Below, one piece after another: positions 2,291 through 26,311 of a DNA stretch of 32,000 nucleotides. The notes under the pieces are model-generated. The model worked only from the letters and a program-made list of their open reading frames with translations, made no database searches and was not told where the DNA came from. The stretch covers positions 94,053 through 126,052 of the forward strand of contig NZ_PGGB02000003.1 of the NCBI RefSeq assembly GCF_002803295.2, read 5' to 3'. This stretch comes from Caedibacter taeniospiralis (GTDB lineage Bacteria > Pseudomonadota > Gammaproteobacteria > Francisellales > Francisellaceae). Made by a program: the position numbers and the translations under genes. The stretch's first letter is position 1. Each line of letters starts with the position of its first letter.

Positions 2291-4317
2291 GCGCCCACCT
2301 TCTTCATGTTTTCAATTTCACTTTCTGTTTCTTCTACTTCTTTTGCTTTGACGAAGTAGTCGATATCGTAGTTAAACCCGCGCGTAATCACAGAAGCAAT
2401 GATGCCAACCAAACCAACCACGGCAAGCCACCAGATATGCCATATCATGGCAAAGCCAAACGCTAAAGCAAATGCGCCAATTACAAAAGCAACCCCTGTA
2501 TTTCTCGGCATATGAATATCTTCATAAGGGCGTTTTTCAGAGGCGGGTCTGTTTTCAATATTTAAGCCCTTTTTCTTATGCTCCCAGAAGCCATCCAGTG
2601 AATCGACCACAGGATCACGTGCAAAATTATAAAAAGGCGCTGGCGATGCCGTTGCCCATTCAAGGGTGCGCCCATTCCAAGGATCACCCGTTAAATCACG
2701 GTTTTTGTGACGGTCTTTGATACTGACAATAATCTGAATGACTTGTAAAAGCACGCCAATGGCAATCAACATTGAACCGACCCACGCTACGACCAACCAA
2801 GGTTGGAAACCGGTTGAGGCGTCATAATTATACAAGCGACGCGTCATGCCAATAGCGCCAAGATAATAAAGCGGCATAAAGGCTACAAAGAAACCAATAA
2901 TCCAGAACCAGAATGACCACTTGCCCAGACGTTCGTTAAGCTTAAAGCCAAACATTTTCGGAAACCAGTAGATAAGACCCGCAAAGTAACCAAAGACGAC
3001 ACCGCCAATAATAACGTTATGAAAATGCGCAATCAAGAACACGCTGTTGTGCATCTGAAAATCGACACCTGGCACTGACAGCAATACCCCCGTCATCCCA
3101 CCAATCGTAAAGGTCACCAAAAAGCCCATCAGCCAATACATTGGCGAGGTAAAGGTAATTCGCCCACGAAACATGGTGAACAACCAGTTGAAAATCTTAA
3201 CCCCCGTTGGAATCGCAATAATCATCGTCATAATACCAAAGAAGGCGTTTACATTGGCACCTGCCCCCATCGTAAAGAAGTGGTGCAGCCATACTGAGAA
3301 GGAAAGAACGGTGATGACAATGCTCGCCCCCACCATCGTTGCATAACCAAATAATTTTTTCTTGGCAAATACTGAAGTGATTTCTGAGAAGATCCCAAAC
3401 GCAGGTAAAATCAAAATATAAACTTCAGGGTGCCCCCAGATCCAGATCAGATTGACATACATCATCTGATCTCCGCCGCCACTAACGGTGAAGAAATTCG
3501 TACCAAGATAACGATCCAAGGTTAATAGCGCCAAGGTTACTGTTAACACGGGGAAGGCAGCGATCACTAGAATAATTGAACACAATGAAGTCCAGGTAAA
3601 TACGGGCATTTTCATCAAGGTCATGCCTTTACAGCGCATTTTGATGATGGTGACAAAAAAGTTTACTCCCGTCATCAGCGACCCGATACCCGATATCTGA
3701 AGCGCCCATATCCAATAATCCACCCCGACACTGGGACTATAAGCCGTCTCCGAATAAGGAGGATATGCCAACCAGCCCGTGTGCGCAAAGTCACCTATGA
3801 GCAAAGACATATTAACCAACACCACACCGACAACGAAAAGCCAGAAACTTAGCGAATTCAGATAGGGGAATGCCACATCACGCGCGCCAATTTGCAGTGG
3901 AATCGCGATATTCATCAAGCCAAACATCAAAGGCATTGCCACAAAGAAAATCATGATAACACCATGAGCAGTGAATATCTGATCAAAATGCTCAGGAATC
4001 AGATAACCCGTACTATCCCCTGATGCCAGTGCCTGTTGCGTACGCATCATTGCGGCATCGACGAATCCACGAAATAACATCACCAAGGCGACAAGGATGT
4101 ACATGATGCCAATTTTTTTATGATCTACCGTGGTAAACCACTCGCGCCACAAGTATCCCCATTTTTTATAATACGTGACGCCACCAACTAATGCTAAGCC
4201 GCCAACCACGATGAAGATAAACATTCCAAGAATGATCAGCTGCTGGCTTACGGGTTCCCATAAGTACGGAAAAACCTCATGTGGATCACTCAGTCTTCCA
4301 ATTAATGCTTCTAACAT
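2287..4317 (-). CDS. cyoB: Cytochrome o ubiquinol oxidase subunit I
   Basis: 676 aa with strong similarity to E. coli CyoB ([28 protein letters not shown] and HFHNVIIGG heme/CuB ligand regions). Confidence 0.95.
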
Positions 4318-9536: not shown

Positions 9537-10049
9537 TTTATTTTATCCTCCTATGACTTAAAACCGCCAGATAACGGACTTAAGTTTGAATCACATTCAG
9601 TAGACTGGCATTGTAATGACTTTGGCTATCAAAAACAAACAAAGTCTGGTGGTCACCATAGCTTTGCCCACTTTAGTACCAGGCGAGGCAATCCATAAAA
9701 CAGCGCTGGATTGCCGCGTCGCTCCCCCTTTTTATCATTCCAACGACATGAAGCTGAAGCTTAGAGTTTCAAACATTAAAGCTTTGACCACTTTGCTGCA
9801 GTTACTATAAATGCTATGCCCTATAAAGTTTAAGTGCGCAAAAAAAGACTTAAAAATCATCATTTTGTTGAATTTACTTAGATTACTTAAACTACTGTGA
9901 CTATCAGTGATAATATAAGCTCAGATATACAACAAAATATAGCCTATTACAACACATGCTTATGAGAACCCTAAGCAGCTTCGCTTAAGGGAATCCATAT
10001 TCACCTGGTTGAACGAGGTCAAAACCATAGTAAAAAACGTGGAGAAAAA

Positions 10050-10766
10050 ATGGGAACGGCATTAGAAACCCTGCATGAAAAGATTAAAGGCGAATATAGT
10101 AATAAGCTGAAAAACAAGGAAACACTGCAGGATGAGAAAACACTGGCAGATACAGAGCAATATAAGCTAATTGTAGAAAGATTACATTCCACTGAATTTG
10201 AAACTAAGCTTGTCGAGTATTTTAAGCCATCTGAGAATAAAACGTCAGATAATCTCACCACCAAGACCAAAAAGTCTCAGCAACCGACGACTACACCGTT
10301 AGATAACTTTTACACCTCGCTAGAGCAACTTGCTCAAAATTTTTCTTTACTGGAAAAAATACTTGATGAGGATAATTTCAAGCCTGAGTATAAATTTACA
10401 AATCCAGAGGTTCAATCAACGTGGCTAGGAAAATGCAAGAACAATCCCAAACTATATCTGGATAACCGTCACATACCAATGATTGAAGCATGTACTTGGG
10501 AGGGAGAAAGAAAAAACAACCATCCTCAACCTTTTAAAAAGCTTGATAATAAGATTGCCAAGCAGCTAGTGGAGAGCAAGGTTACCGATTTAATGGTAAA
10601 TGCTACTTTTCCAAGTGCAACGAAGGATCCACAATTGGCAAGGTTATTTTATGATTTTCAGCATAGATTTTCCCAACTAACGCCTGAATATTTTGACCAG
10701 ATTATTGGATTGCCAGTCAGAACGATAGATAGCAAAATTCCTGAGAATAATTTCACATTCAGATAA
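10050..10766 (+). CDS. Hypothetical protein, probably the 5' part of a frameshift-split effector-like gene
   Basis: ATG at 10050 with GGAG 5 nt upstream. 238 aa, Lys/Glu/Thr-rich, with no signal peptide or TM segment. It ends at TAA 10764-10766 while the +1 frame is already open from 10729. Confidence 0.6.
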   Translation: MGTALETLHEKIKGEYSNKLKNKETLQDEKTLADTEQYKLIVERLHSTEFETKLVEYFKPSENKTSDNLTTKTKKSQQPTTTPLDNFYTSLEQLAQNFSLLEKILDEDNFKPEYKFTNPEVQSTWLGKCKNNPKLYLDNRHIPMIEACTWEGERKNNHPQPFKKLDNKIAKQLVESKVTDLMVNATFPSATKDPQLARLFYDFQHRFSQLTPEYFDQIIGLPVRTIDSKIPENNFTFR

Positions 10767-10812
10767 ATATACGTTTCGTAAGCTCAAAACGGATGATCGT
10801 GCGGGTTATATT

Positions 10813-12060
10813 TTGGGGCACTTAAGTTATTGCTGTCAAAGCATAGGAGCTGAGGGGGATAGCTGTGCGCGTTATGGGATGCAGGAAGAAAATAGCGGTT
10901 TTTATGTTGTTGAAGATAAGAAAGGCGATATTGTTGGTCAAGGCTGGGCAGTTTTGTACGAAGAAAAGGGGAAGCAAGTTTTAGCAATTGACTCCTGGGA
11001 AAACATACAGGATAGGTTGTCGGATAATGAGAGTAGCAAGCTGTTAGCGCACTTTGGCTATCTTTGTAAGGAGAATCAGAAGATTGACGAAATTAGGCTG
11101 GGTGTGGGCTCTGGATTTGGCGCAAGGATGGCGGATAATAAAGGACTTGTAAAAATAGAGCAGCCAACGTACCCAAACTCTGAAAAGTATAATGACGGTC
11201 AAAAGTTGTATCGTGATGGTGCAACTGCAGTAGCTATAGACTCTAAAAAGTTGGAATCTGCTAAAACAATGAACTCTGAAAGTCATACCAGACAGAATGA
11301 TAAATTGACTTTGAGTATCAACAATGTGGAGCAGGATTATGTTGCCTCCCAAATCAGTGCAATTACTAGTGCTGCAGATCTGTGTAAATTGATTTGTGGC
11401 TTGCCAAAAGAGTATGGTAATAAAGTAATAGATACAGTAGCCGATCAGCTTGGTGGTGACGATGGGTTGATCAGGGATGCCTATCAATTAGAGGCTTTAC
11501 TCAAAGTGGTAAGCTCAGAACAACAAACATTTGTTTTAAAGAAAGTAGCCGATCAGCTTGGTGGTGACGATGGGTTAATCGGGGATGCCTATCAGTTAGG
11601 GGCTTTACTCAAAGTGATAGGCTCAGAACAACAAACATTTGTTTTAAAGAAAGTAGCCGAGCAGCTTGTTGGGTTGATTGACCATAACTATTCGAATCAG
11701 TTAGAAGACTTACTCAAGGCGGTAGGTCCTGCACAACAAACACTTATTTTAGAGAAAGTAGCCGAGCAGCTTGTTGGTGAGAATGGATGGATTGGCTCTA
11801 GCCGCTCATTAATGAGTTTACTTGAAGCGGTGGGTTCAGAACAACAAACATTCATTTTAAACCTGGTTGCTGACAGTCTGTTGAATACAGCCTTGCTAGA
11901 GGGGATGCCTGACGAGCTAAAATCAGATGTTATGCGTAGACGCGCAGAAATGACAGAACATTCGTCTCCACCCGGTACATCTGGGAAAACTAATACACAT
12001 TATGAGGAAATTTTTATGCCGACTGAAAAGGGGTCACTCCATTGTGGACCTGGGGTATAA
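10813..12060 (+). CDS. Hypothetical repeat protein (36-aa tandem repeats), probably the 3' part of the same split gene
   Basis: The ORF-track start is TTG. No ATG occurs until 10879 and there is no Shine-Dalgarno sequence. The frame is open back to 10729 and reads through ...DKYTFRKLKTDDRAGYILGHLSYCCQSIG. Its C-terminal half carries 4-5 tandem 35-36-aa repeats. Confidence 0.6.
   Translation: MGHLSYCCQSIGAEGDSCARYGMQEENSGFYVVEDKKGDIVGQGWAVLYEEKGKQVLAIDSWENIQDRLSDNESSKLLAHFGYLCKENQKIDEIRLGVGSGFGARMADNKGLVKIEQPTYPNSEKYNDGQKLYRDGATAVAIDSKKLESAKTMNSESHTRQNDKLTLSINNVEQDYVASQISAITSAADLCKLICGLPKEYGNKVIDTVADQLGGDDGLIRDAYQLEALLKVVSSEQQTFVLKKVADQLGGDDGLIGDAYQLGALLKVIGSEQQTFVLKKVAEQLVGLIDHNYSNQLEDLLKAVGPAQQTLILEKVAEQLVGENGWIGSSRSLMSLLEAVGSEQQTFILNLVADSLLNTALLEGMPDELKSDVMRRRAEMTEHSSPPGTSGKTNTHYEEIFMPTEKGSLHCGPGV
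11437..11930 (+). repeat. In-frame tandem repeat array, 105-108 bp units (about 4.5 copies)
   Basis: Units start at 11437, 11545, 11653, 11758 and 11866. Units 1 and 2 differ at only 6 of 108 nt. The consensus peptide is VA(D/E)QLGGDDGLIxDAYQLxALLKVxGSEQQTFVLKK. Confidence 0.9.
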
Positions 12061-12062
12061 CT

Positions 12063-12082
12063 CCCCTTCACGTGTGAAGGGG
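12063..12082. terminator. GC-rich hairpin of the CCCCTTCAC-NN-GTGAAGGGG family, immediately after the stop of the repeat-protein gene
   Basis: CCCCTTCAC-GT-GTGAAGGGG has a 9-bp perfect stem and is followed by AATTT. There is no strong U-tract, so terminator function is inferred from position only. Confidence 0.4.
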
Positions 12083-12228
12083 AATTTAGCGCCCACAAAT
12101 TTGGAATGCGCCCTTTGAAAAGCCTAAAAAGTCTCAAAGTTATGGCGCTGAAGTCTGACTCAATTTTACTTGCTGAAAAATCATGTGGAGTAAGAGCTAA
12201 GGTCTCGTACCTGGGAAAAACCAGCTAT

Positions 12229-12705
12229 CTAGCTCCATAAAATGACTCCTATGAATTGCAGAGCATTGCATTTAATACTCCCAATCAATGCTGTATAGCT
12301 CACTTTTTCCTGCTCTAAACGCACATTTTTACCATACACGTTGCTGGTAAGCTTTTGATATAAGTCCAACTCATCATTTGTTAAACGTGAAAGCACTCGA
12401 TGTTCAGGTTTGGGTTCTTCTCCCCAAAACTCTTTGTGACTCAGCAGGGTTTTTTCATCCATCAAGAGACTTTTCACCTGCGGCAGTTTGGTGCGAAGCT
12501 GATCTAAAATCGCAAAACCATGGCTATCGATATCGCCCCAATAATAAATATTGACATTATGTAGCCAGGTAATTTGCGCTAAATTTTCAAATCCATAGCC
12601 AGCACCGAATATCACAAGACTATGCTTAAGCCTTGGGAAACAGAGAAAATTGATTTCATTTTCGGTAAAAAATACATTCTGCAGGTTTTGCTTTATTTGC
12701 GGCAA
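12229..12705 (-). pseudogene. jetD: Wadjet JetD (MksG-like, DUF2220/Toprim) C-terminal half only
   Basis: VFFTENEINF...VIFGAGYG...IYYWGDIDSHGFAILDQLR...SLLMDEKTLLSH...VRLEQEKV are hallmark JetD Toprim-domain motifs. Only about 160-175 codons remain (the frame is open to 12741 and preceded by TGATGA), with no ATG start. Confidence 0.75.
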
Positions 12706-12751
12706 AGTAATGAGCGTATCAAAATCGCGACTATTAACGCCTCATCAATTA

Positions 12752-12934
12752 CTACAAAACGAAATGTGCGAGATCGGGTATTTGTCCATTCCAAACCAAA
12801 CTGATACGCCAAACCTGCTTATCACAAGTCCCCCAGTTAAACACTTCAAGTCTTTCTAAACGAAAACCACTTAAGCGAATATCATCTAAATCATCAAAGT
12901 TTGCATCAATATTTAAGTCCAGTTGTTCAGCCAT
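12752..12934 (-). pseudogene. jetC: Wadjet JetC (MksF-like SMC ATPase) N-terminal stub
   Basis: [24 protein letters not shown] matches the conserved JetC N-terminus that precedes the Walker A loop. Similarity stops before any GxxGSGKST motif. The ATG overlaps the jetB stop (TAATG). Confidence 0.7.
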
Positions 12935-13587
12935 TATTTTTTATCCTGTAGATATTGCTTGTATTCCCCTAGCTTTTGCTCAAACTCAGACAACCACTGT
13001 GCATCGACAAACGCTTTAATAATCCGTTTGACTTCATATCGCGCCTCGGTAGCCTGAGAGCTTTGTTTTAGTTTGTACAAAAAGCCAAGCTCAACCACTT
13101 TATTGATATGCTTTTCGATTTGATCCGTAAGCTTCACCTCATTGCTTGATTCGGGTAAAAACACCTTCAAAAGTTCGACGATTTCAGCTCTGGTCAATAC
13201 CAATCGCGTATCCGATCCAGAGGCATCAAATTCAGCGAGCTTCTTTCTGAGCAGGGCTAACAACAGGCTCACAGGGAAAGACAGTGGTCTTCTAGCAAAT
13301 AATCTAAGCTCTGAGGCACTATTATTGTGATCAGTTTCTTCGCCATCTATCGGCATCTGTTTTGCGCGTAAAAAGGCGTAGCCTTCAGCTTCATCTAAAA
13401 TAAGCTCAAGCGCAAGCACCTCAATGTAATCGCAAACCTGGGCATGCAAACGAATCAAAGCATTCCAACGCTTAGGATCCGTATCCTGATAAATCACGCC
13501 TTTAAGCAGGGAGATCACAATGGGTGATAACCCAACTGAACTGTCAGCGTTTTCTTCTAAATCTAAACTCAATTGATCACTGTTCAT
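12934..13587 (-). CDS. jetB: Wadjet JetB (MksE-like, DUF4194)
   Basis: 217 aa and intact. [48 protein letters not shown] is the typical DUF4194 core. Confidence 0.8.
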
Positions 13588-13598
13588 CGTTATACTTC

Positions 13599-13626
13599 AT
13601 TTGATTTGATTTGATTTGATTGATTG
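13599..13626. repeat. Microsatellite (ATTTG)4(ATTG)2 in the jetA-jetB spacer
   Basis: Read directly from the sequence: ATTTGATTTGATTTGATTTGATTGATTG. Confidence 0.9.
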
Positions 13627-13627
13627 T

Positions 13628-15083
13628 TTACTTAAAATACAATATGCGAGGAAATGTGGCGCTTCTTGTTACATGCGGCAGGTCTTTTGCCTCAACTTGC
13701 CAGCTAATCGTATCTTCCTTGCTTTCATCCACGATTACACTAAAGCGATCTTTATACGTATCACTATCCATTTCCAGATAAGCCACAAGCTCAGCTAAAC
13801 CCTGTGTTAATGGACGCAAGTTGCATAATTCCACTAAAGTGGCTTGCGACTTCCGCTGCAAATGCTTACGAATATGCTGGGCAATAGCCTGTTTATCGAT
13901 AATGGTTTGTGAAAAAAAACGCTTGGATCAGCATCCTCAAGACCTTCTGTAATCTTGATATTTGCAAGCTTAACTTTCAATGGCGGTCGATAAAGGGTGC
14001 GCTCCATGGGTAAATCAATGACAGCACTGGCAGAATCAATTAACATAAATGGGGTTGCTGCGTCAACGCTAAAAAAGCGCTCTCTATCGGATAACGCAGA
14101 TGATTCAATACCATGAATAATCTCCATAATTCGTTTATTTTCCAGACATGCCTGATCATCTAAAAAGCGGCGTAGTTGTGATGATAATTGTGCTACAGTT
14201 CGTTGTGTATGTTCTCCTGCCTCCAACCAATCGTAGTGGATGCGATTAGTGCGTCTATCTGGATTCAGTGAAGCAACGGCTGATAACTTAAGTGTGTCAT
14301 TGAGCATTTTACTAAAATCTTCCTGGCGACTTGGCGACATCAAAAAATCCCAAAATGCCTGGAAACTTGTGCCTTGATCAGAATCGGCAATGGCATCTCG
14401 TTCTCCCATAATACCCTCAAGCAGCTCTCCTTTTTTGCCACCCCATAAGGCAATTCGCTCGCGCACACTTCTATCTAAGAGTGCGAAAGTTATGCTCAAC
14501 CTGACGAAAATCAGATAATAGCTCACGCGCTTGCTGACTAAATTGCATAAAGCGATCTTTAAGCGCAATATCATCTAACAGCGTCATATTGCCCTGCATG
14601 ACTTGTGCAATCTCTGCATCGATTATCTGGCGCTGTTTCTTAAGCTCTTGCAATCTCACTTCAGGGCCTATGGCACTGCCTTGAGTAATTTGTTTGAGTA
14701 GATCAAATAACATTAAAAGTCTGGACTCTGTGCCAACAAAACTGCGCTGCCCCAAAGAGGATAGCCACGAAATGGCTTTTTCAGTGGCAGGCATTAAATC
14801 AAAATAAGCCTCATCTGAATCCTGACGATAAAATCGCCGCCCAGTCATTCAAATAATCACGAGCTGGTTTGGGAAAGCTTCGTTCTCCCAATCTTTCTCT
14901 TAACTCGAACAAAACGTCTTCAAGAGCTTCAATCAGATCAGCTTCAGCAACAACGCGGACGTTCTCAGCAATAAAGACACGATTCAAAAAGCTTGCAATT
15001 AAAGGGGCATGCGGACTGACCAATAAGCGCCAGGCAGGATGATTTTGACGAAGTGATTCCAGGGTTTGATAATCAAGCTGCAT
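13628..15083 (-). pseudogene. jetA: Wadjet JetA (MksB-like kleisin, DUF3375) broken by three frameshifts
   Basis: Four consecutive minus-strand ORF pieces (14811-15083, 14471-14848, 13834-14574, 13628-13861) together give about 485 codons. They carry DUF3375 signatures in order: HPAWRLL...APLIASFL, YLNDW, FDLMPATEKAISWL, FVGTESRL, NFRTL/DRSVRERIALW, SFQAFWDFLMS, PLTQGLAELVAYL. Confidence 0.8.
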
Positions 15084-15403
15084 AAAGAATTTACCGCAAT
15101 CTCTTAAAAAGAAAGTATTTCAAAAACAAATCGGCATTGTAACGCGTGCTGGCTAACAGAAAAACCTGATTTTTTGTAACTGGCACAATTATTGTTTATG
15201 CAACTGTATTTAGTTGCAATAAAAGCAAATCAACTAGGCACTTCAGTTAATGATTTCATAAAATCAGCGATCAATAATCAACTCAACTCCAACATTCTGT
15301 AAGTTAATGGCACTAAGTTAAGCTGTTTTTAGGACCACCCCATCTGCCGCTTCGCATTGTCTTCTAGCTGCGCACAAAGCTTGCAGCGTTCAGCGTTGAG
15401 TGC

Positions 15404-15567
15404 ATAGGGATCTCAAATTTAATAAGATACCCATTTATTTTGACGGTAGTAGGGTGGATAAGCCGAAGGCACATCCATCAATACTCAACCTATTTGCTTT
15501 TCTGCGTGGATGCGCCTTCGGCTTATCCACCCCACACTGAGGTACGTTATTAACCTGGAGATCCTAT
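15404..15567. repeat. Long imperfect palindromic (MITE/REP-like) element
   Basis: The arms begin ATAGGGATCTC... on the left and ATAGGATCTCC... on the right (reverse complement). A 19-bp perfect inverted core GGGTGGATAAGCCGAAGGC (15452-15470) pairs with GCCTTCGGCTTATCCACCC (15514-15532). A half copy lies at 25486-25553. Confidence 0.8.
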
Positions 15568-15609
15568 AAAACAGTTAAACAGTAGCTGCACTCGTTCCTC
15601 CCCCATCTT

Positions 15610-15792
15610 CTAGCCCCCATCCAATGTTTTTGCCTCTTTTTTGTAAAAATCCTGGTAATCGTGGTTTATCCAAAACTCAAAAAGGCTTTGCATAGCCTTG
15701 TACTTGACTTCACCTATCTCACCATTGCTCTGCTTGCCGCCAAAAGTTTTTATAGCATGATTAAAATCCCTTGCAGAAGGGAAGAAGTCCAT
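15610..15792 (-). CDS. Small hypothetical protein (60 aa)
   Basis: An ATG-initiated ORF divergent from rpiA. I see no recognisable family and only a weak RBS. It may be a gene fragment or spurious. Confidence 0.25.
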
Positions 15793-15877
15793 ATATACCG
15801 CCCGTAAACCATTTTGTAATCGTTCCCGATTATGCCAAAATAACTCACCGCTAGAGTATTTGGATATTTACATACCT

Positions 15878-16555
15878 ATGTTTTTCAGCAAAAAAACAGA
15901 TCACAATGAGCTAAAAAAACTTGCTGCAAGGGCCGCACTTGAATACATCAAACCAGGCATGGTCGTTGGTGTTGGTACAGGATCAACCGTCAACTTTTTT
16001 ATTGATGAATTAATTAAGATAAAATCCAAAATTGAGCTCACGGTCTCAAGCTCTGAAGGAAGCACTAAGCGCCTTAAAGCACATGGCTTTGAAGTCGTCG
16101 ATTTGAATTACCCTGGCAAAGTAGACATCTATATTGATGGCGCTGATGAAGCGAATAAGCATCGCGAGCTTATCAAAGGAGGAGGAGCAGCTCTTACGCG
16201 TGAGAAAATTTGTCGTGTTGCCAGTGAAAAATTTGTTTGCATTATCGATCAAAGCAAGCTTGTGCCACAATTAGGCAGATTTCCTTTACCCGTTGAGGTC
16301 ATTCCAATGGCCAGAAGCTATGTTGCCAAAGAACTAATAAGGATTGGGGGGCAGCCTGTTTATCGTGAGGGAGTTGTGACCGATAATGGCAATATCATCA
16401 TTGATATTCATAATCTGATGATCGACAACCCATTAAAGCTTGAACAACAACTCAACCAAATTACAGGTGTTGTCTGTAATGGTCTGTTTGCGGTGAATCC
16501 TGCTGATGTGCTTCTGATCGCCAATGACAACGGAAAGATTGATACGATTTCATAA
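15878..16555 (+). CDS. rpiA: Ribose-5-phosphate isomerase A
   Basis: [31 protein letters not shown] and [10 protein letters not shown] motifs. The start is moved from the TTG at 15860 to the ATG at 15878, giving 225 aa. Confidence 0.9.
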
Positions 16556-16727
16556 AACATACCTATCATAGATCACGGCGTTGAAATTTATGCTTATGCT
16601 TAAGGTAGAAGATAGGACTCAATAAACTCTATCCATCGCTTTTTCTACCCATTTGTAACTGTAAAACGCTCTACAAGTGAGATACAATCTCCACACTTTT
16701 AATCCCTTCCTTTGGAACAATAAACCA

Positions 16728-18299
16728 ATGAGAACCATTAAACGCGCTTTAATTAGCGTTTCTGACAAAACGGGAATTGTCGACTTTGCCAAACAGCTAC
16801 ATCAACTTCACATAGAGATTTTATCCACAGGGGGTACTGCCAAACTACTTATGGAAGCTGGAGTTCCCGTCATTGAAGTTTCTGACTACACGGGTTTTCC
16901 CGAGATGATGGGTGGACGAGTTAAGACATTACACCCTAAAATTCATGGAGGTATTCTGGGGCGCCGCGATCGTGATCGAGAAATTATGCAAAAACACCAG
17001 ATTCCTGAAATTGATCTGATCATTGTTAATCTTTATCCTTTTAAGCAAACAGTTGAGAAGCCGAATGTAAGCTTTGCTGAAACGATTGAAAATATCGACA
17101 TTGGAGGTCCTGCGATGCTGCGTTCAGCTGCGAAAAATCATCAGGATGTTGCGGTTATTTGCGACCCTAACGATTACGCTGAAATCATACAGAAACTAAA
17201 CCACACCCAGGGTGCTTTAGACTTCGCAACGCGGTTTCGGCTGGCTTGTAAGGTCTTTGAACACACTGCACACTATGATGGCATGATTGCTAACCATCTT
17301 GGCGCATTCAATCCAGAAACTGGTAATAAAGGGCAACGATTTGCCAATACTATTAATTTGCAATATACGAAGGCACAAGAAATGCGCTACGGTGAAAACC
17401 CGCATCAGCAGGCTGCACTTTATATTGAGCCAAACTATCCCAACGCATCGGTGGCACGCGCCAAACAGCTGCAGGGCAAAGCGTTATCATATAACAATAT
17501 TGCTGACACGGATGCAGCCCTGCAGTGCGTTAAAAGCTTTGATTTACCCGCTTGCGTTATTGTTAAACACGCCAATCCTTGCGGTGTTGCGATTGGGAGC
17601 TCCTTAAATAAAGCCTATCAAAAGGCTTTTCAAACCGACCCAACCTCTGCCTTTGGTAGCATTATTGCTTTTAATCAAGTACTTGACGGCATAACTGCTA
17701 AAGCAATTATCGATCAGCAGTTTGTTGAAGTAATTATCGCCCCTGAAGTGACGGCGGATGCCTTGAAGGTTCTGGCCAATAAGCCTAATGTCCGCGTCCT
17801 TGCCTGCGGCTATGACAGAAAGCCAAATTTACCTGAGTTAGAACTGAAAAAAATTGATGGAGGTCTTCTTGTGCAGGATAAAGATGTCCATCAGCTAAAC
17901 GAGAATAAGCTTACTATCGTAACAAAGACAGCTCCTACTGTTAAGCAAGTACAAGATCTGCTATTTGCCTGGAAAGTAGTTAAGTTTGTTAAATCAAATG
18001 CAATTGTCTATGCCAAAAACCATATGACCATTGGCATAGGGGCTGGACAAATGAGTCGAGTATTTAGCTCTAAAATTGCTCTTGAGAAGGCTCAGGATGC
18101 TAAGCTTAATGTTCACGATTCAGTGATGGCATCTGATGCTTTTTTCCCTTTTAGAGATGGAGTGGATGCTGCGGCTAAATCAGGCATTAGCGCAATTATT
18201 CAACCAGGTGGCTCAATGCGCGATCAGGAAGTGATCGATGCAGCAAATGAGCATGGCATTGTCATGGTATTTACAGGGGTGAGACATTTTAGGCATTGA
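16728..18299 (+). CDS. purH: Bifunctional AICAR transformylase / IMP cyclohydrolase
   Basis: [37 protein letters not shown] and GAGQMSRV motifs. The start is moved from the GTG at 16677 to the ATG at 16728 ([14 protein letters not shown]). Confidence 0.93.
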
Positions 18300-23106: not shown

Positions 23107-23898
23107 ATGCACAAATATTCGTTTGCAAAGATGCCAGCAACTTTAGTCAATAAGCTCATAGCAGCTTCTTTAAGTTTTTGTTTGACGCTGACGTTTCTTC
23201 CTCTCTCTAGTCACTCAGAGAGTTTACAACAACGGTATCATGTTTTTTTGAGTAACTATTATTTATCGGATACACCGTTATCTAGCGCAGGGAAAATTAT
23301 CGCCTCAACAAAGGGAAAAACGCTGATTTCAGTGGGTGACACTATTTATGTCTCACCGGCAAAAAAAAGTCCAATGTATTATGCTGTTGCCTATGTTCAA
23401 AGCATCCCTTATGGCAAGGGAAAAAAAGCAAACTATGATTATCTGTTAAAACGACTTGGAACAGCAAAATTAAGTGCTGATCGCCAAGATATATTAATTA
23501 TGCAGATGGCTGATGTTGTTCAGGAAATTAGCTTGGGTGATCACATGCTGCCAGCGGATCTGATCAATTCCAAACTCCCCGATCAAGAGCTTATTGCAGA
23601 TCAGAATATTTCAGGTATTGTCATGCAATTAGAGGATGCGACTAGTTTTGCAGGGACTTATCAATCTGTTTTACTCAACATGGGATACGCTTCTGGGTTA
23701 AAATTGGGCATGCGTGTCTATTTTGAATCGACACCACAAAAAATTGACGATTACAACCTTTCAGGAGGCTATTTAGGTCAGGGATTTATTTATCGTCTGG
23801 CAAGTCATCATGCCATAGCATTAGTGACACACGCCAAACAGGAAATTTTGGTTGGCAGTATTGCTCTTACACAGCTGCCAAAGCGCCATGTTAAATAG
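23107..23898 (+). CDS. Secreted/periplasmic hypothetical protein (positional equivalent of LysM/TsaP-type genes found upstream of dprA)
   Basis: An N-terminal signal peptide (LIAASLSFCLTLTFLPLSSHS). 263 aa. It is translationally coupled to dprA by an 11-nt overlap. I recognise no LysM motif, so the functional call is weak. Confidence 0.6.
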   Translation: MHKYSFAKMPATLVNKLIAASLSFCLTLTFLPLSSHSESLQQRYHVFLSNYYLSDTPLSSAGKIIASTKGKTLISVGDTIYVSPAKKSPMYYAVAYVQSIPYGKGKKANYDYLLKRLGTAKLSADRQDILIMQMADVVQEISLGDHMLPADLINSKLPDQELIADQNISGIVMQLEDATSFAGTYQSVLLNMGYASGLKLGMRVYFESTPQKIDDYNLSGGYLGQGFIYRLASHHAIALVTHAKQEILVGSIALTQLPKRHVK

Positions 23899-24976
23899 TA
23901 CTGATTTTGCAATATTGCACACCTTACCACATTTCACATTTGGACACTATCAAAAACTCATTGCTGCCAAGATAACGATTTCGGAGCTGCTTAAAAAACC
24001 TTGGCTTTACCAGAAGTTTTTGGGTTTAAATGCGCAGACCATCGATTTCATTCGGGATGAAAAATACACAGACTATCTTAGTAAAGTGGATTCCTGGCTA
24101 AAGCAATCATCAAATCATCACCTTATCCACCATATAGACACAGGTTTTCCATCTCAACTTAAACAGATTTCTGATCCACCGCTTAGCCTGTATGCCATTG
24201 GTGATATCGCGTTACTTGGCACGTTGCAGCTTGCCGTTGTGGGCACGCGTCACGCAAGCTTTTACGGTGCTGAAATAATCCATCATCTTATCCCAGAGCT
24301 TACTGAATCTAATCTCACCATTACCAGTGGCATGGCCTTGGGGATCGATGCCCTTGCACATGAAGAAGCCTTGAAAAACAATGGTAAAACCATCGCCATC
24401 TTGGGAACAGGGGTTAATATTTGTTATCCTCCACAAAATCGCAGACTCTACGCTGAGATACATTCCAAGGGTTTAGTTATTTCCGAGTTTTTACTCAATC
24501 AAGTCCCTAAGCGCTACCACTTCCCTAGGAGAAATCGAATTATCAGCGGTTTAAGTTTGGGTGTAGTTGTCGTTGAGGCTGCCGATAGAAGTGGCTCATT
24601 GATTACTGCCATGCACGCACTAGAACAAAATCGGGAAGTTTTTGCTGTGCCAGGGAATATTTTTCATAACGAAAGTCACGGATGTAATAAGCTCATCCAG
24701 ATGGGGGCTAAGCTCATTAGTTCTGCAGATGACATTATCAGTGAGCTTAACCTAAAGCAAACATTAAACAATTCAAAACTTAAACCATTTCAGCAATCAC
24801 TGCTACTTACGCAGGAACAACAGCTCGTATTTGAGAGTATCAGCTCAACCTGTACTACTATTGATAAAATCATCGACAATACCAACTTAACATACGCGAA
24901 AATTACTGGCATACTGTTTGAGCTTGAGATGGAAGCGCTTATTTGTGCGGTTCCAGGCGGATATAGACGAGTCTAA
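23888..24976 (+). CDS. dprA: DNA-processing protein A (Smf)
   Basis: LAVVGTRHASFYG, ITSGMALGIDALAHEEAL, IAILGTGVNICYPPQNRRLY, VISEF, FPRRNRIISGLS, VVVEAADRSGSLITA. The start is set at ATG 23888 (MLNSTDF). Confidence 0.9.
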   Translation: MLNSTDFAILHTLPHFTFGHYQKLIAAKITISELLKKPWLYQKFLGLNAQTIDFIRDEKYTDYLSKVDSWLKQSSNHHLIHHIDTGFPSQLKQISDPPLSLYAIGDIALLGTLQLAVVGTRHASFYGAEIIHHLIPELTESNLTITSGMALGIDALAHEEALKNNGKTIAILGTGVNICYPPQNRRLYAEIHSKGLVISEFLLNQVPKRYHFPRRNRIISGLSLGVVVVEAADRSGSLITAMHALEQNREVFAVPGNIFHNESHGCNKLIQMGAKLISSADDIISELNLKQTLNNSKLKPFQQSLLLTQEQQLVFESISSTCTTIDKIIDNTNLTYAKITGILFELEMEALICAVPGGYRRV

Positions 24977-25740: not shown

Positions 25741-25816
<76 letters not shown>

Positions 25817-25882: not shown

Positions 25883-26311
25883 TTAATTGAACTGAGGTGT
25901 TTTGCCGTTAAATACATCCGCAATGGCATCAATAATCTTCCAGCCTTGTTTACGAGCAGTCGATAGTAAAGTACGAATACGCACAAATTTCTGGGCCCCA
26001 GCCTCACTACGAAAGCAACCCGAAACTTTTTGCTTTACCTTCATCATACGCAAGTCATTCTCCGCTTGACTATTGGTAAATGGCACCTTAGCATCATAAA
26101 TAAATCTCAATACCTCAGCTTTATAATCACCTAAGCGCAATAACAAGTTATGCCCTGTTCTTCGTTTCTTTCTGCCTCTTTTACCAGCATTTTCTAAAGG
26201 CATCAAAATCTCGTGATATGTAAGACCGTCCTTGACAATTCGATCATAAATTTTACCGATCAGGATTTGCTTATCAGGTAAGAGCACTGATTGCTCAGAT
26301 ATATTCACCAT
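25883..26311 (-). pseudogene. IS66-family transposase, C-terminal fragment
   Basis: VPFTNSQAENDLRMMKVKQKVSGCFRSEAGAQKFVRIRTLLSTARKQGW matches the conserved IS66 TnpC C-terminal region (vPfdNN.aER.lR..K...K..gg.rs..ga..fa.i.s...Ta.k.g). Only 142 codons remain. Confidence 0.8.

Follow-up and report, generated by a model that had tools for sequence, protein, structure and literature searches.

Among the known defences, Wadjet is the principal one to target plasmids by their shape and size rather than by their sequence, and natural losses of the system in plasmid-dependent bacteria are therefore informative. JetABC forms a structural maintenance of chromosomes (SMC) loop-extruding motor, which measures the DNA by extruding it completely, after which the Toprim nuclease JetD is licensed, and JetABCD cuts circular DNA of up to approximately 100 kb irrespective of its sequence; neither JetABC nor JetD is active by itself, and activity in vivo depends on all four genes (bioRxiv 10.1101/2022.10.04.510915). 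In an intact system, the JetC SMC ATPase, the JetA kleisin, and the JetB KITE subunit would extrude loops together, and license JetD to cut small circular molecules. In Corynebacterium glutamicum, the single deletion of mksB, mksF or mksG abolishes plasmid control (PMC10123090).

The present analysis concerns positions 12229-15083 of a 32,000-nucleotide stretch of the genome of Caedibacter taeniospiralis (contig NZ_PGGB02000003.1, positions 94,053 to 126,052; hereafter, the window), which almost certainly hold what is left of a type I Wadjet operon, inherited vertically and no longer functional, in a reduced genome. The minus strand carries jetA, jetB, jetC and jetD in this order, as seen in the open reading frames (ORFs) of window positions 10000-18000, and the type I models (JetA1, JetB1, JetC1 and JetD1) are the best matches of all four genes in the Pfam and PADLOC scans. 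The identification of the minus strand of this region as a type I Wadjet (JetABCD) operon is confirmed by homology, gene order, and orthology. A preliminary description, made from the nucleotides alone, had proposed four co-linear genes in the Wadjet order, and this is borne out by the collinearity of the pieces on the four models; the profile searches that it recommended, of the pieces and of a frameshift-corrected translation, returned highly significant, collinear matches to the Jet families. Approximately 42% of a 6.77-kb operon remains.

The only whole gene is jetB (12934..13587, minus strand), an intact ORF of 217 amino acids that encodes the KITE subunit (DUF4194/MksE-like) and is identical to WP_100550466.1. 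The protein is matched over its full length by PADLOC JetB1 (PDLC00474, 6.9e-84) and by Pfam DUF4194 (PF13835, 6.1e-42, over positions 2-165 of 165), and also matches Pfam MksE (3.4e-16). The stop codon of jetB and the ATG of jetC share one base, which is the same arrangement found in the intact operon of Cysteiniphilum, where JetB is 82-84% identical. At the rate of insertions and deletions (indels) seen in jetA, the chance that the 654 bp of jetB would have escaped any indel is approximately 0.26, and one of the two Caedibacter lineages described below (lineage B) has lost the gene altogether, so that its intactness needs no special explanation; jetB is most likely still open in lineage A, to which the window belongs, by chance. 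Selection on jetB was also considered, and found no support.

The jetA pseudogene, which encodes the kleisin (DUF3375), lies at 13628..15083 on the minus strand, and is broken into four reading-frame pieces, as the preliminary description had held, together with the singular intactness of jetB; ORFs, Pfam, and PADLOC agree on both points. The pieces, at 15083-14811, 14848-14471, 14574-13834 and 13861-13628, cover positions 1-81 (3e-33), 88-208 (7e-56), 204-394 (1e-73) and 410-477 (8.5e-14), respectively, of the 480 positions of the DUF3375/JetA1 profile (Pfam PF11855, PADLOC PDLC00457). Once corrected for the frameshifts, the protein has approximately 492 amino acids, is matched by PDLC00457 over profile positions 1-477 of 480 (3.9e-195), contains no stop codon derived from a substitution, and is 81% identical to the JetA of Cysteiniphilum, the nearest intact protein. 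The lesions were mapped by tblastn and blastn of every fragment against the intact operon of Cysteiniphilum sp. JM-1. The first, at 14838..14839, is the loss of 23 bp that both intact references have, which shifts the frame after codon ~82; the second (14471..14483) is a 1-bp insertion near 14480 that brings the TAG at 14473-14471 into frame; and the third is a 1-bp deletion in a run of eight T (13912..13919). An (AATCA)n microsatellite occupies the spacer between jetA and jetB (13600..13625, minus strand).

The damage to jetC is far more extensive, with only 73 of approximately 1134 codons retained, a loss of about 94%. The 5' remnant (12797..12934, minus strand), with which the ORF at 12934-12752 begins, corresponds to reference codons 1-46 (JetC1, 1e-10) and stops before the Walker A motif. 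A second remnant, of 27 codons, lies out of frame with the first at 12738-12818 on the minus strand (12738-12805 downstream of the junction described below), corresponds to reference codons ~1030-1056, and includes the Walker B motif FRFVVIDEA (JetC1, 2.8e-11). The preliminary description had assigned jetC about 50 codons, which holds for the N-terminal remnant, but overlooked this Walker B piece. The two pieces are separated by an internal deletion junction at 12806..12814, formed by a single copy of GTTTGGCGT, with approximately 2.95 kb gone relative to the intact reference. The gene thus lacks the Walker A motif, the coiled-coil arms, the hinge, and the C-terminal head (its last 78 codons); the homology to JetC1 is evident, but an SMC ATPase of approximately 1100 amino acids is no longer encoded.

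At the second junction (12735..12736), position 3170 of jetC is joined to position ~591 of jetD, with 826 bp gone; the junction sequence is GATGAGGCGTTAATAGTCGC. The jetD 3' remnant (12229..12735, minus strand) appears to consist of a 6-codon scrap, a gap, and the Toprim codons. The scrap, at 12735-12719 (codons 198-203), matches the reference at 15 of 17 nt, including a collinear exact match of 9 nt, and is probably followed by an in-frame gap of 117 bp, although the same arrangement may alternatively be read as one deletion of approximately 0.95 kb with 9 nt of filler. Codons 240-390 follow at 12726-12274 and correspond to the Toprim domain, in which the glutamate of the TENE motif and the DxD motif of DIDSHG are kept; the boundary between the scrap and the Toprim piece is ambiguous, and the two therefore overlap over 12726-12719. 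The ORF at 12705-12229 matches JetD_C (PF09983, 1.4e-47) and JetD1 (PDLC00530, 1.9e-63, profile positions 243-383 of 391). The view that jetD keeps its C-terminal half is correct in that only the C-terminal Toprim region survives, but is refined here to approximately 150 of 398 codons plus the probable scrap, with the N-terminal 60% absent. A JetD with both the DUF3322 region and the Toprim domain is not encoded, given that codons 1-197, and probably 204-239, are missing. Two or three deletions separate the beginning of jetC from jetD; a single deletion between the two genes was also considered, and is ruled out by the Walker B piece.

Given that all four subunits are required, and that JetC and JetD are truncated and jetA is frameshifted three times, the Wadjet system encoded at this locus would be dead, as judged from the sequence together with the published requirements. 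On the state of its JetC and JetD, the locus is best classed as a cluster of Wadjet pseudogenes, and not as a functional system. The scans of the locus for promoters and terminators returned sites at the level expected by chance, and the NCBIfam scan returned no match for JetB, for JetD_C, or for the gene of a repeat protein inserted beside them. When plasmids were searched by blastn with the locus, the search recovered only distant Wadjet genes carried by megaplasmids, and there is therefore no sign of a plasmid origin.

Besides the protein of Caedibacter itself (100%), the closest JetB in a search of 5.8 billion proteins is that of Cysteiniphilum sp. JM-1, at 82% identity, with all others at 69% or less; a scan of genome contigs for JetB recovered 80 distant Wadjet loci (53-65% identity), with no close relative among them. 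The JM-1 genome (GCA_008711525.1, VXKS01000016.1; contig L002) has a complete jetABCD, with products of 492, 223, 1134 and 398 amino acids, followed directly by genes for EamA (123 amino acids), DegT (384), a GT2 glycosyltransferase (326), and an epimerase (338). In the window, these four genes follow the jetD remnant at positions 9536-5706, with their order and orientation unchanged, which makes the site orthologous on the jetD side, in agreement with the expectation of the preliminary description that an intact operon might be found at the same position in a relative. Synteny is broken on the jetA side, where Cysteiniphilum has a CBS-domain gene and the leu operon, versus rpiA-purH in Caedibacter, and a tblastn search of the window found no remnant of the CBS/GAF neighbours of Cysteiniphilum. 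Identity to Cysteiniphilum is 68-84% for the Jet proteins versus 89-94% for the flanking proteins. In Cysteiniphilum sp. QT6929 (contig L087, 8989-9462), a GAF-domain gene of 157 amino acids is found between the CBS gene and EamA, where JM-1 has jetABCD, and this replacement indicates that Wadjet is accessory within the family, in a variable slot.

Six further public contigs span the site in Caedibacter, and they fall into two lineages. In lineage A, contig L001 (GCA_031972495.1) is 99.65% identical to the window and has all of its structural lesions, differing by single-nucleotide polymorphisms (SNPs) and one unit of the microsatellite, while L088 (JACCDZ011042321.1), which was retrieved by a metagenome search with the 33-nt junction sequence, is 99.4% identical, and shares with the window the three jetA frameshifts, the jetC-jetD junction, and the 2.6-kb insertion beyond jetD. 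The first jetA lesion and the frame pattern of the third are common to both contigs. The microsatellite varies in length among the window, L001, and L088. L088 retains JetC codons 1-148 and 906-1056, and has 657 bp that are absent from the window, bounded by two copies of the 9-bp repeat GTTTGGCGT; in addition, it has lost a further 1 bp close to the 3' end of jetA, and its JetB carries the replacement Y209H. Lineage B comprises L084-L086 and a 34-kb contig (JGI sample 3300059473, for which only the gene listing was available); its DegT, WP_395947250.1, likewise bears the name C. taeniospiralis, and the identity of its flanks to those of the window is 97-98.7%. The gene order here is rpiA, an ORF of 94 amino acids, an IS110 transposase, JetC codons 792-1057, JetD codons 240-387, and EamA, and jetA, jetB, and the 2.6-kb insertion are all absent. 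The IS110-family transposase (L084 130-1185) sits exactly at the site of the lost jetA, jetB and 5' portion of jetC, which implies a deletion associated with the insertion sequence, and the 32-kb window contains no copy of this element.

The two lineages agree at all of the 60 nt that surround the jetC-jetD junction (100% identity), and the presence of an identical junction in every Caedibacter sequence indicates that this deletion is ancestral to the known lineages. The remaining lesions are lineage-specific. The most economical history would begin with an intact, vertically inherited operon, such as that of Cysteiniphilum JM-1. In the ancestor of Caedibacter, a deletion of approximately 0.83 kb (plus the probable 117 bp) would have joined the Walker B region of jetC to the middle of jetD, an event that alone would disable both the head of the SMC motor and the nuclease. 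Lineage A would then have acquired the three jetA indels, the jetC gap from codon 148 to 906, and the 2.6-kb insertion, which is the state of L088, and a later 657-bp deletion between the two copies of the 9-bp repeat would have produced the state of the window and L001. In lineage B, the IS110-associated event would have removed jetA, jetB, and jetC codons 1-791, that is, the 5' two-thirds of the operon.

Rates of substitution provide a further view of the remnants. The polymorphisms of lineage A within the remnants comprise nine non-synonymous and five synonymous changes, a ratio that fits neutrality (P=0.26) and not a constraint like that of the flanks (P=0.001). Between the two lineages, nine flanking genes have a pooled omega (the ratio of non-synonymous to synonymous divergence, dN to dS) of approximately 0.11, with dN of 0.001-0.012, while the JetD_C remnant (window 12274-12726 versus L084 2160-2612) has a dN of 0.042, a dS of 0.145, and an omega of 0.29. 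Constraint on the remnants is thus clearly relaxed, though the omega of JetD_C falls short of 1. The differences in JetD_C between the lineages are clustered, and lie outside the Toprim core and the junction. The dS between the lineages declines with distance from the remnant, from 0.145 to 0.11-0.12, 0.06, and then 0.025-0.03, which suggests the local import of sequence by recombination or a deeper coalescence around the locus. A synonymous divergence of approximately 0.025 is reached in the cyo operon, about 8 kb from the JetD remnant, in flanks that were followed to window position 503. An intact dprA gene (374 amino acids, window 23852-24976, plus strand) is kept in this reduced genome, and bears on the question of recombination between the lineages.

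Like JetB, the neighbouring DegT and CyoB of the window are exact matches to RefSeq proteins of C. taeniospiralis. The host is a member of the Fastidiosibacteraceae (Thiotrichales), an uncultured obligate cytoplasmic endosymbiont that confers the killer trait on Paramecium tetraurelia, with a genome of approximately 1.32 Mb and a GC content of 41.5% (PMC5773718, PMC7297999). Its R-body reb operon is encoded by a circular plasmid, pKAP51, of 41.65 kb, or, in another strain, pKAP298, of 49.11 kb (PMC7297999). The suggestion that the locus speaks to the plasmid history of the lineage accords well with this, given that the defining killer trait of the host rides on a circular plasmid of 42-49 kb, within the reported target range of Wadjet. 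A live Wadjet system would probably attack pKAP, and its loss is compatible with, and may even be needed for, the stable carriage of the plasmid, a link drawn from these data by inference; the loss may reflect either neutral genome reduction or the enabling of plasmid carriage.

A number of observations weigh against this account of a dead, stepwise-eroded locus whose loss bears on the plasmid. The order of events in lineage A is the simplest reading, and two independent large deletions are possible, given that the jetC gap of the window encloses that of L088. The Toprim remnant of JetD is open in both lineages, with its catalytic residues kept and an omega of 0.29 rather than one close to 1, for which simulation under neutrality yields P=0.025, or P=0.057 once three indel-distorted codons are removed, which leaves eight synonymous and ten non-synonymous changes. 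No expression data on the locus were found, and the supplementary text of the Dual-Seq paper is silent on these genes. The link to the plasmid is circumstantial, pKAP lies just below a suggested threshold of 50-100 kb, and a few plasmids of more than 40 kb coexist with jetABCD in the Bacillota. The pattern in JetD_C might represent residual constraint on the Toprim domain, divergence that preceded the deletion followed by the recombinational spread of the deletion allele, or the noise of small numbers. A partial domestication, in which JetB (in lineage A) or the Toprim fragment (in both lineages), or both, would work outside the Wadjet complex, would account for some 150 codons of JetD_C remaining open despite 6% nucleotide divergence, for differences distributed over the three codon positions as [10, 3, 14], and for the full-length JetB ORF with its conserved overlap with jetC. 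This explanation appears improbable, however, as jetB is wholly deleted in lineage B and altered by Y209H in L088, while the JetD_C fragment lacks its N-terminal domains, has a TTG with no evident ribosome-binding site as its sole upstream start, and differs in its C-terminus between the lineages through an indel and the 2.6-kb insertion; the statistics become marginal after cleaning, and the promoter sites are no more numerous than expected by chance. Neither KITE subunits nor Toprim fragments of JetD are known to work in isolation. The possibility that the locus is truly intact, and that the frameshifts and gaps reflect sequencing errors or misassembly, might be raised by the draft assembly of an uncultured symbiont, and by the position of one of the three jetA frameshifts in a T8 homopolymer. 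The other two frameshifts, however, come from the loss of 23 bp and from an insertion outside any homopolymer, and sequencing errors do not account for kilobase-scale deletions whose junctions are defined. The three frameshifts and the junctions are repeated in assemblies from other samples (L001 and L088) that differ from the window in SNPs and structure, and the ancestral junction is found again in L084-L086; this recurrence in independent assemblies indicates that the lesions are real, and an artefact is effectively refuted.

The remaining alternative concerns the cause of the decay, and not the identity of the locus. The inactivation of Wadjet may have been selected, or been a precondition for plasmid carriage, since an active JetABCD would cleave pKAP, with the jetC-jetD deletion as the enabling mutation. 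The sizes of the two circular plasmids, and the restriction by JetABCD of circular DNA of up to approximately 100 kb, whatever its sequence, agree with this idea, as do the near mutual exclusion of jetABCD and small plasmids in the Bacillota, the increase of approximately 1e5-fold in plasmid uptake that follows the loss of Wadjet in Clostridium cellulovorans, and the eptC mutation of Mycobacterium smegmatis mc2155, which permits plasmid transformation (PMC10123090). The first lesion is common to all the Caedibacter sequences found, and a type I-C CRISPR-Cas system is reported as kept (PMC7297999), so that defence was not lost wholesale. The junction region has a single difference in 170 bp between the lineages, versus approximately 7% in its flanks, which could represent the spread of the deletion allele, but conserved motifs fall in this same stretch of low divergence. 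At 1.32 Mb, the genome is roughly half as large as that of a free-living relative (2.61 Mb in Cysteiniphilum QT6929), and with a reduction this strong, neutral loss under relaxed selection is a sufficient explanation; other Cysteiniphilum species also lack Wadjet, moreover, and the plasmid may have been gained either before or after the system was lost. Adaptive loss is thus the less probable cause, though one to be taken seriously. By the same token, it can only be tentatively proposed that the inactivation of Wadjet enabled the killer symbiosis with Paramecium through the stable carriage of pKAP, that the deletion allele may have passed from one Caedibacter lineage to another through recombination, or, in a more exotic variant, that the Toprim fragment of JetD was kept for a new role. 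Even so, this provides a testable hypothesis for how a symbiont became permissive to its key plasmid.

The surroundings of the locus had been described as an accessory islet, with the locus next to an effector-like gene, which stands for the Wadjet remnant and for a lineage-specific insertion of 2.6 kb, but not for the neighbouring genes, which are core housekeeping genes. The insertion (9649..12254, plus strand) lies at the 3' end of the jetD remnant, before EamA, and is restricted to lineage A, where the window, L001, and L088 all have it; lineage B and Cysteiniphilum do not. Within the insertion is an orphan gene (10050-12060, plus strand) for a protein of approximately 669 amino acids with five tandem repeats of approximately 36 amino acids, which is split in the window by a 1-bp duplication of a T at 10759, and forms a single gene of 662 amino acids in L001. 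This protein has no match in Pfam or NCBIfam, and its sole distant relative is an ankyrin-repeat protein of 597 amino acids (36% identity across 26% of the query); the protein is a candidate for an effector directed at the host. Elsewhere in the window, a group II intron is matched by Rfam (RF00029) at 367-443 on the plus strand, with 45.9 bits against a gathering score of 40, and overlaps an ORF of 91 amino acids on the minus strand (146-421). A tRNA-Asn (25741-25816) is directly followed by a fragment of an IS66-family transposase of 142 amino acids (25883-26311, minus strand), which is probably another decayed mobile element.

Neither of the genome papers (PMC5773718, PMC7297999) describes a jet locus, and the literature search found no paper that names both "Caedibacter taeniospiralis" and "Wadjet". 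The novelty here is the identification of the locus, which is absent from the literature searched, the series of decay across multiple lineages, and the link to a host whose hallmark trait is plasmid-borne. In mechanistic terms, the locus offers nothing new, and belongs, as a pseudogene, to a well-known family; it nevertheless illustrates cleanly how a defence locus decays by deletion as a genome is reduced, and the chromosome keeps a dated series of inactivation, with a shared first hit followed by separate erosion in each lineage.

Of the closest known counterparts, the JM-1 operon is an ortholog, with identities of 81-84% (JetA and JetB), 74-96% (the pieces of JetC), and 68% (JetD_C), at the same site on the jetD side; it differs from the Caedibacter locus in being complete, in having the CBS-domain gene and leu operon upstream instead of rpiA-purH, and in lacking the 2.6-kb insertion. 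The same four families in the same order are found in the type I systems of Escherichia coli GF4-3 and Bacillus cereus Q1 (Doron 2018; Liu/Gruber 2022; Deep/Corbett 2022), and the translational overlap of jetB and jetC, the E and DxD residues of the JetD Toprim domain, and the Walker B motif of JetC are still recognisable in Caedibacter. Unlike those systems, Caedibacter has only jetB whole, with about 94% of JetC and 60% of JetD lost, so that the extrusion and cleavage of DNA would not be expected to occur. The SMC-kleisin-KITE architecture is also common to the MukBEF and MksBEF condensins, and JetB itself matches the MksE family, but the presence of a JetD-type Toprim gene, and the best matches to the Jet-specific models, identify the locus as Wadjet and not as a housekeeping condensin. 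The MksBEFG system of C. glutamicum is a homolog of type I Wadjet, in which the deletion of MksB, MksF or MksG relieves the restriction of plasmid copy number (PMC10123090), and this effect of single deletions supports the interpretation of the Caedibacter lesions as inactivating; in contrast with the Caedibacter remnant, it is functional, and belongs to a free-living actinobacterium. The loss of a member of the Wadjet family in a plasmid-accepting host is likewise known from EptABCD of M. smegmatis (eptC of mc2155) and from the spontaneous and engineered deletions of jetABCD in C. cellulovorans. Those losses are laboratory events with measured phenotypes, whereas the decay in Caedibacter, known from its sequence, is natural, multi-step, and species-wide in an endosymbiont.

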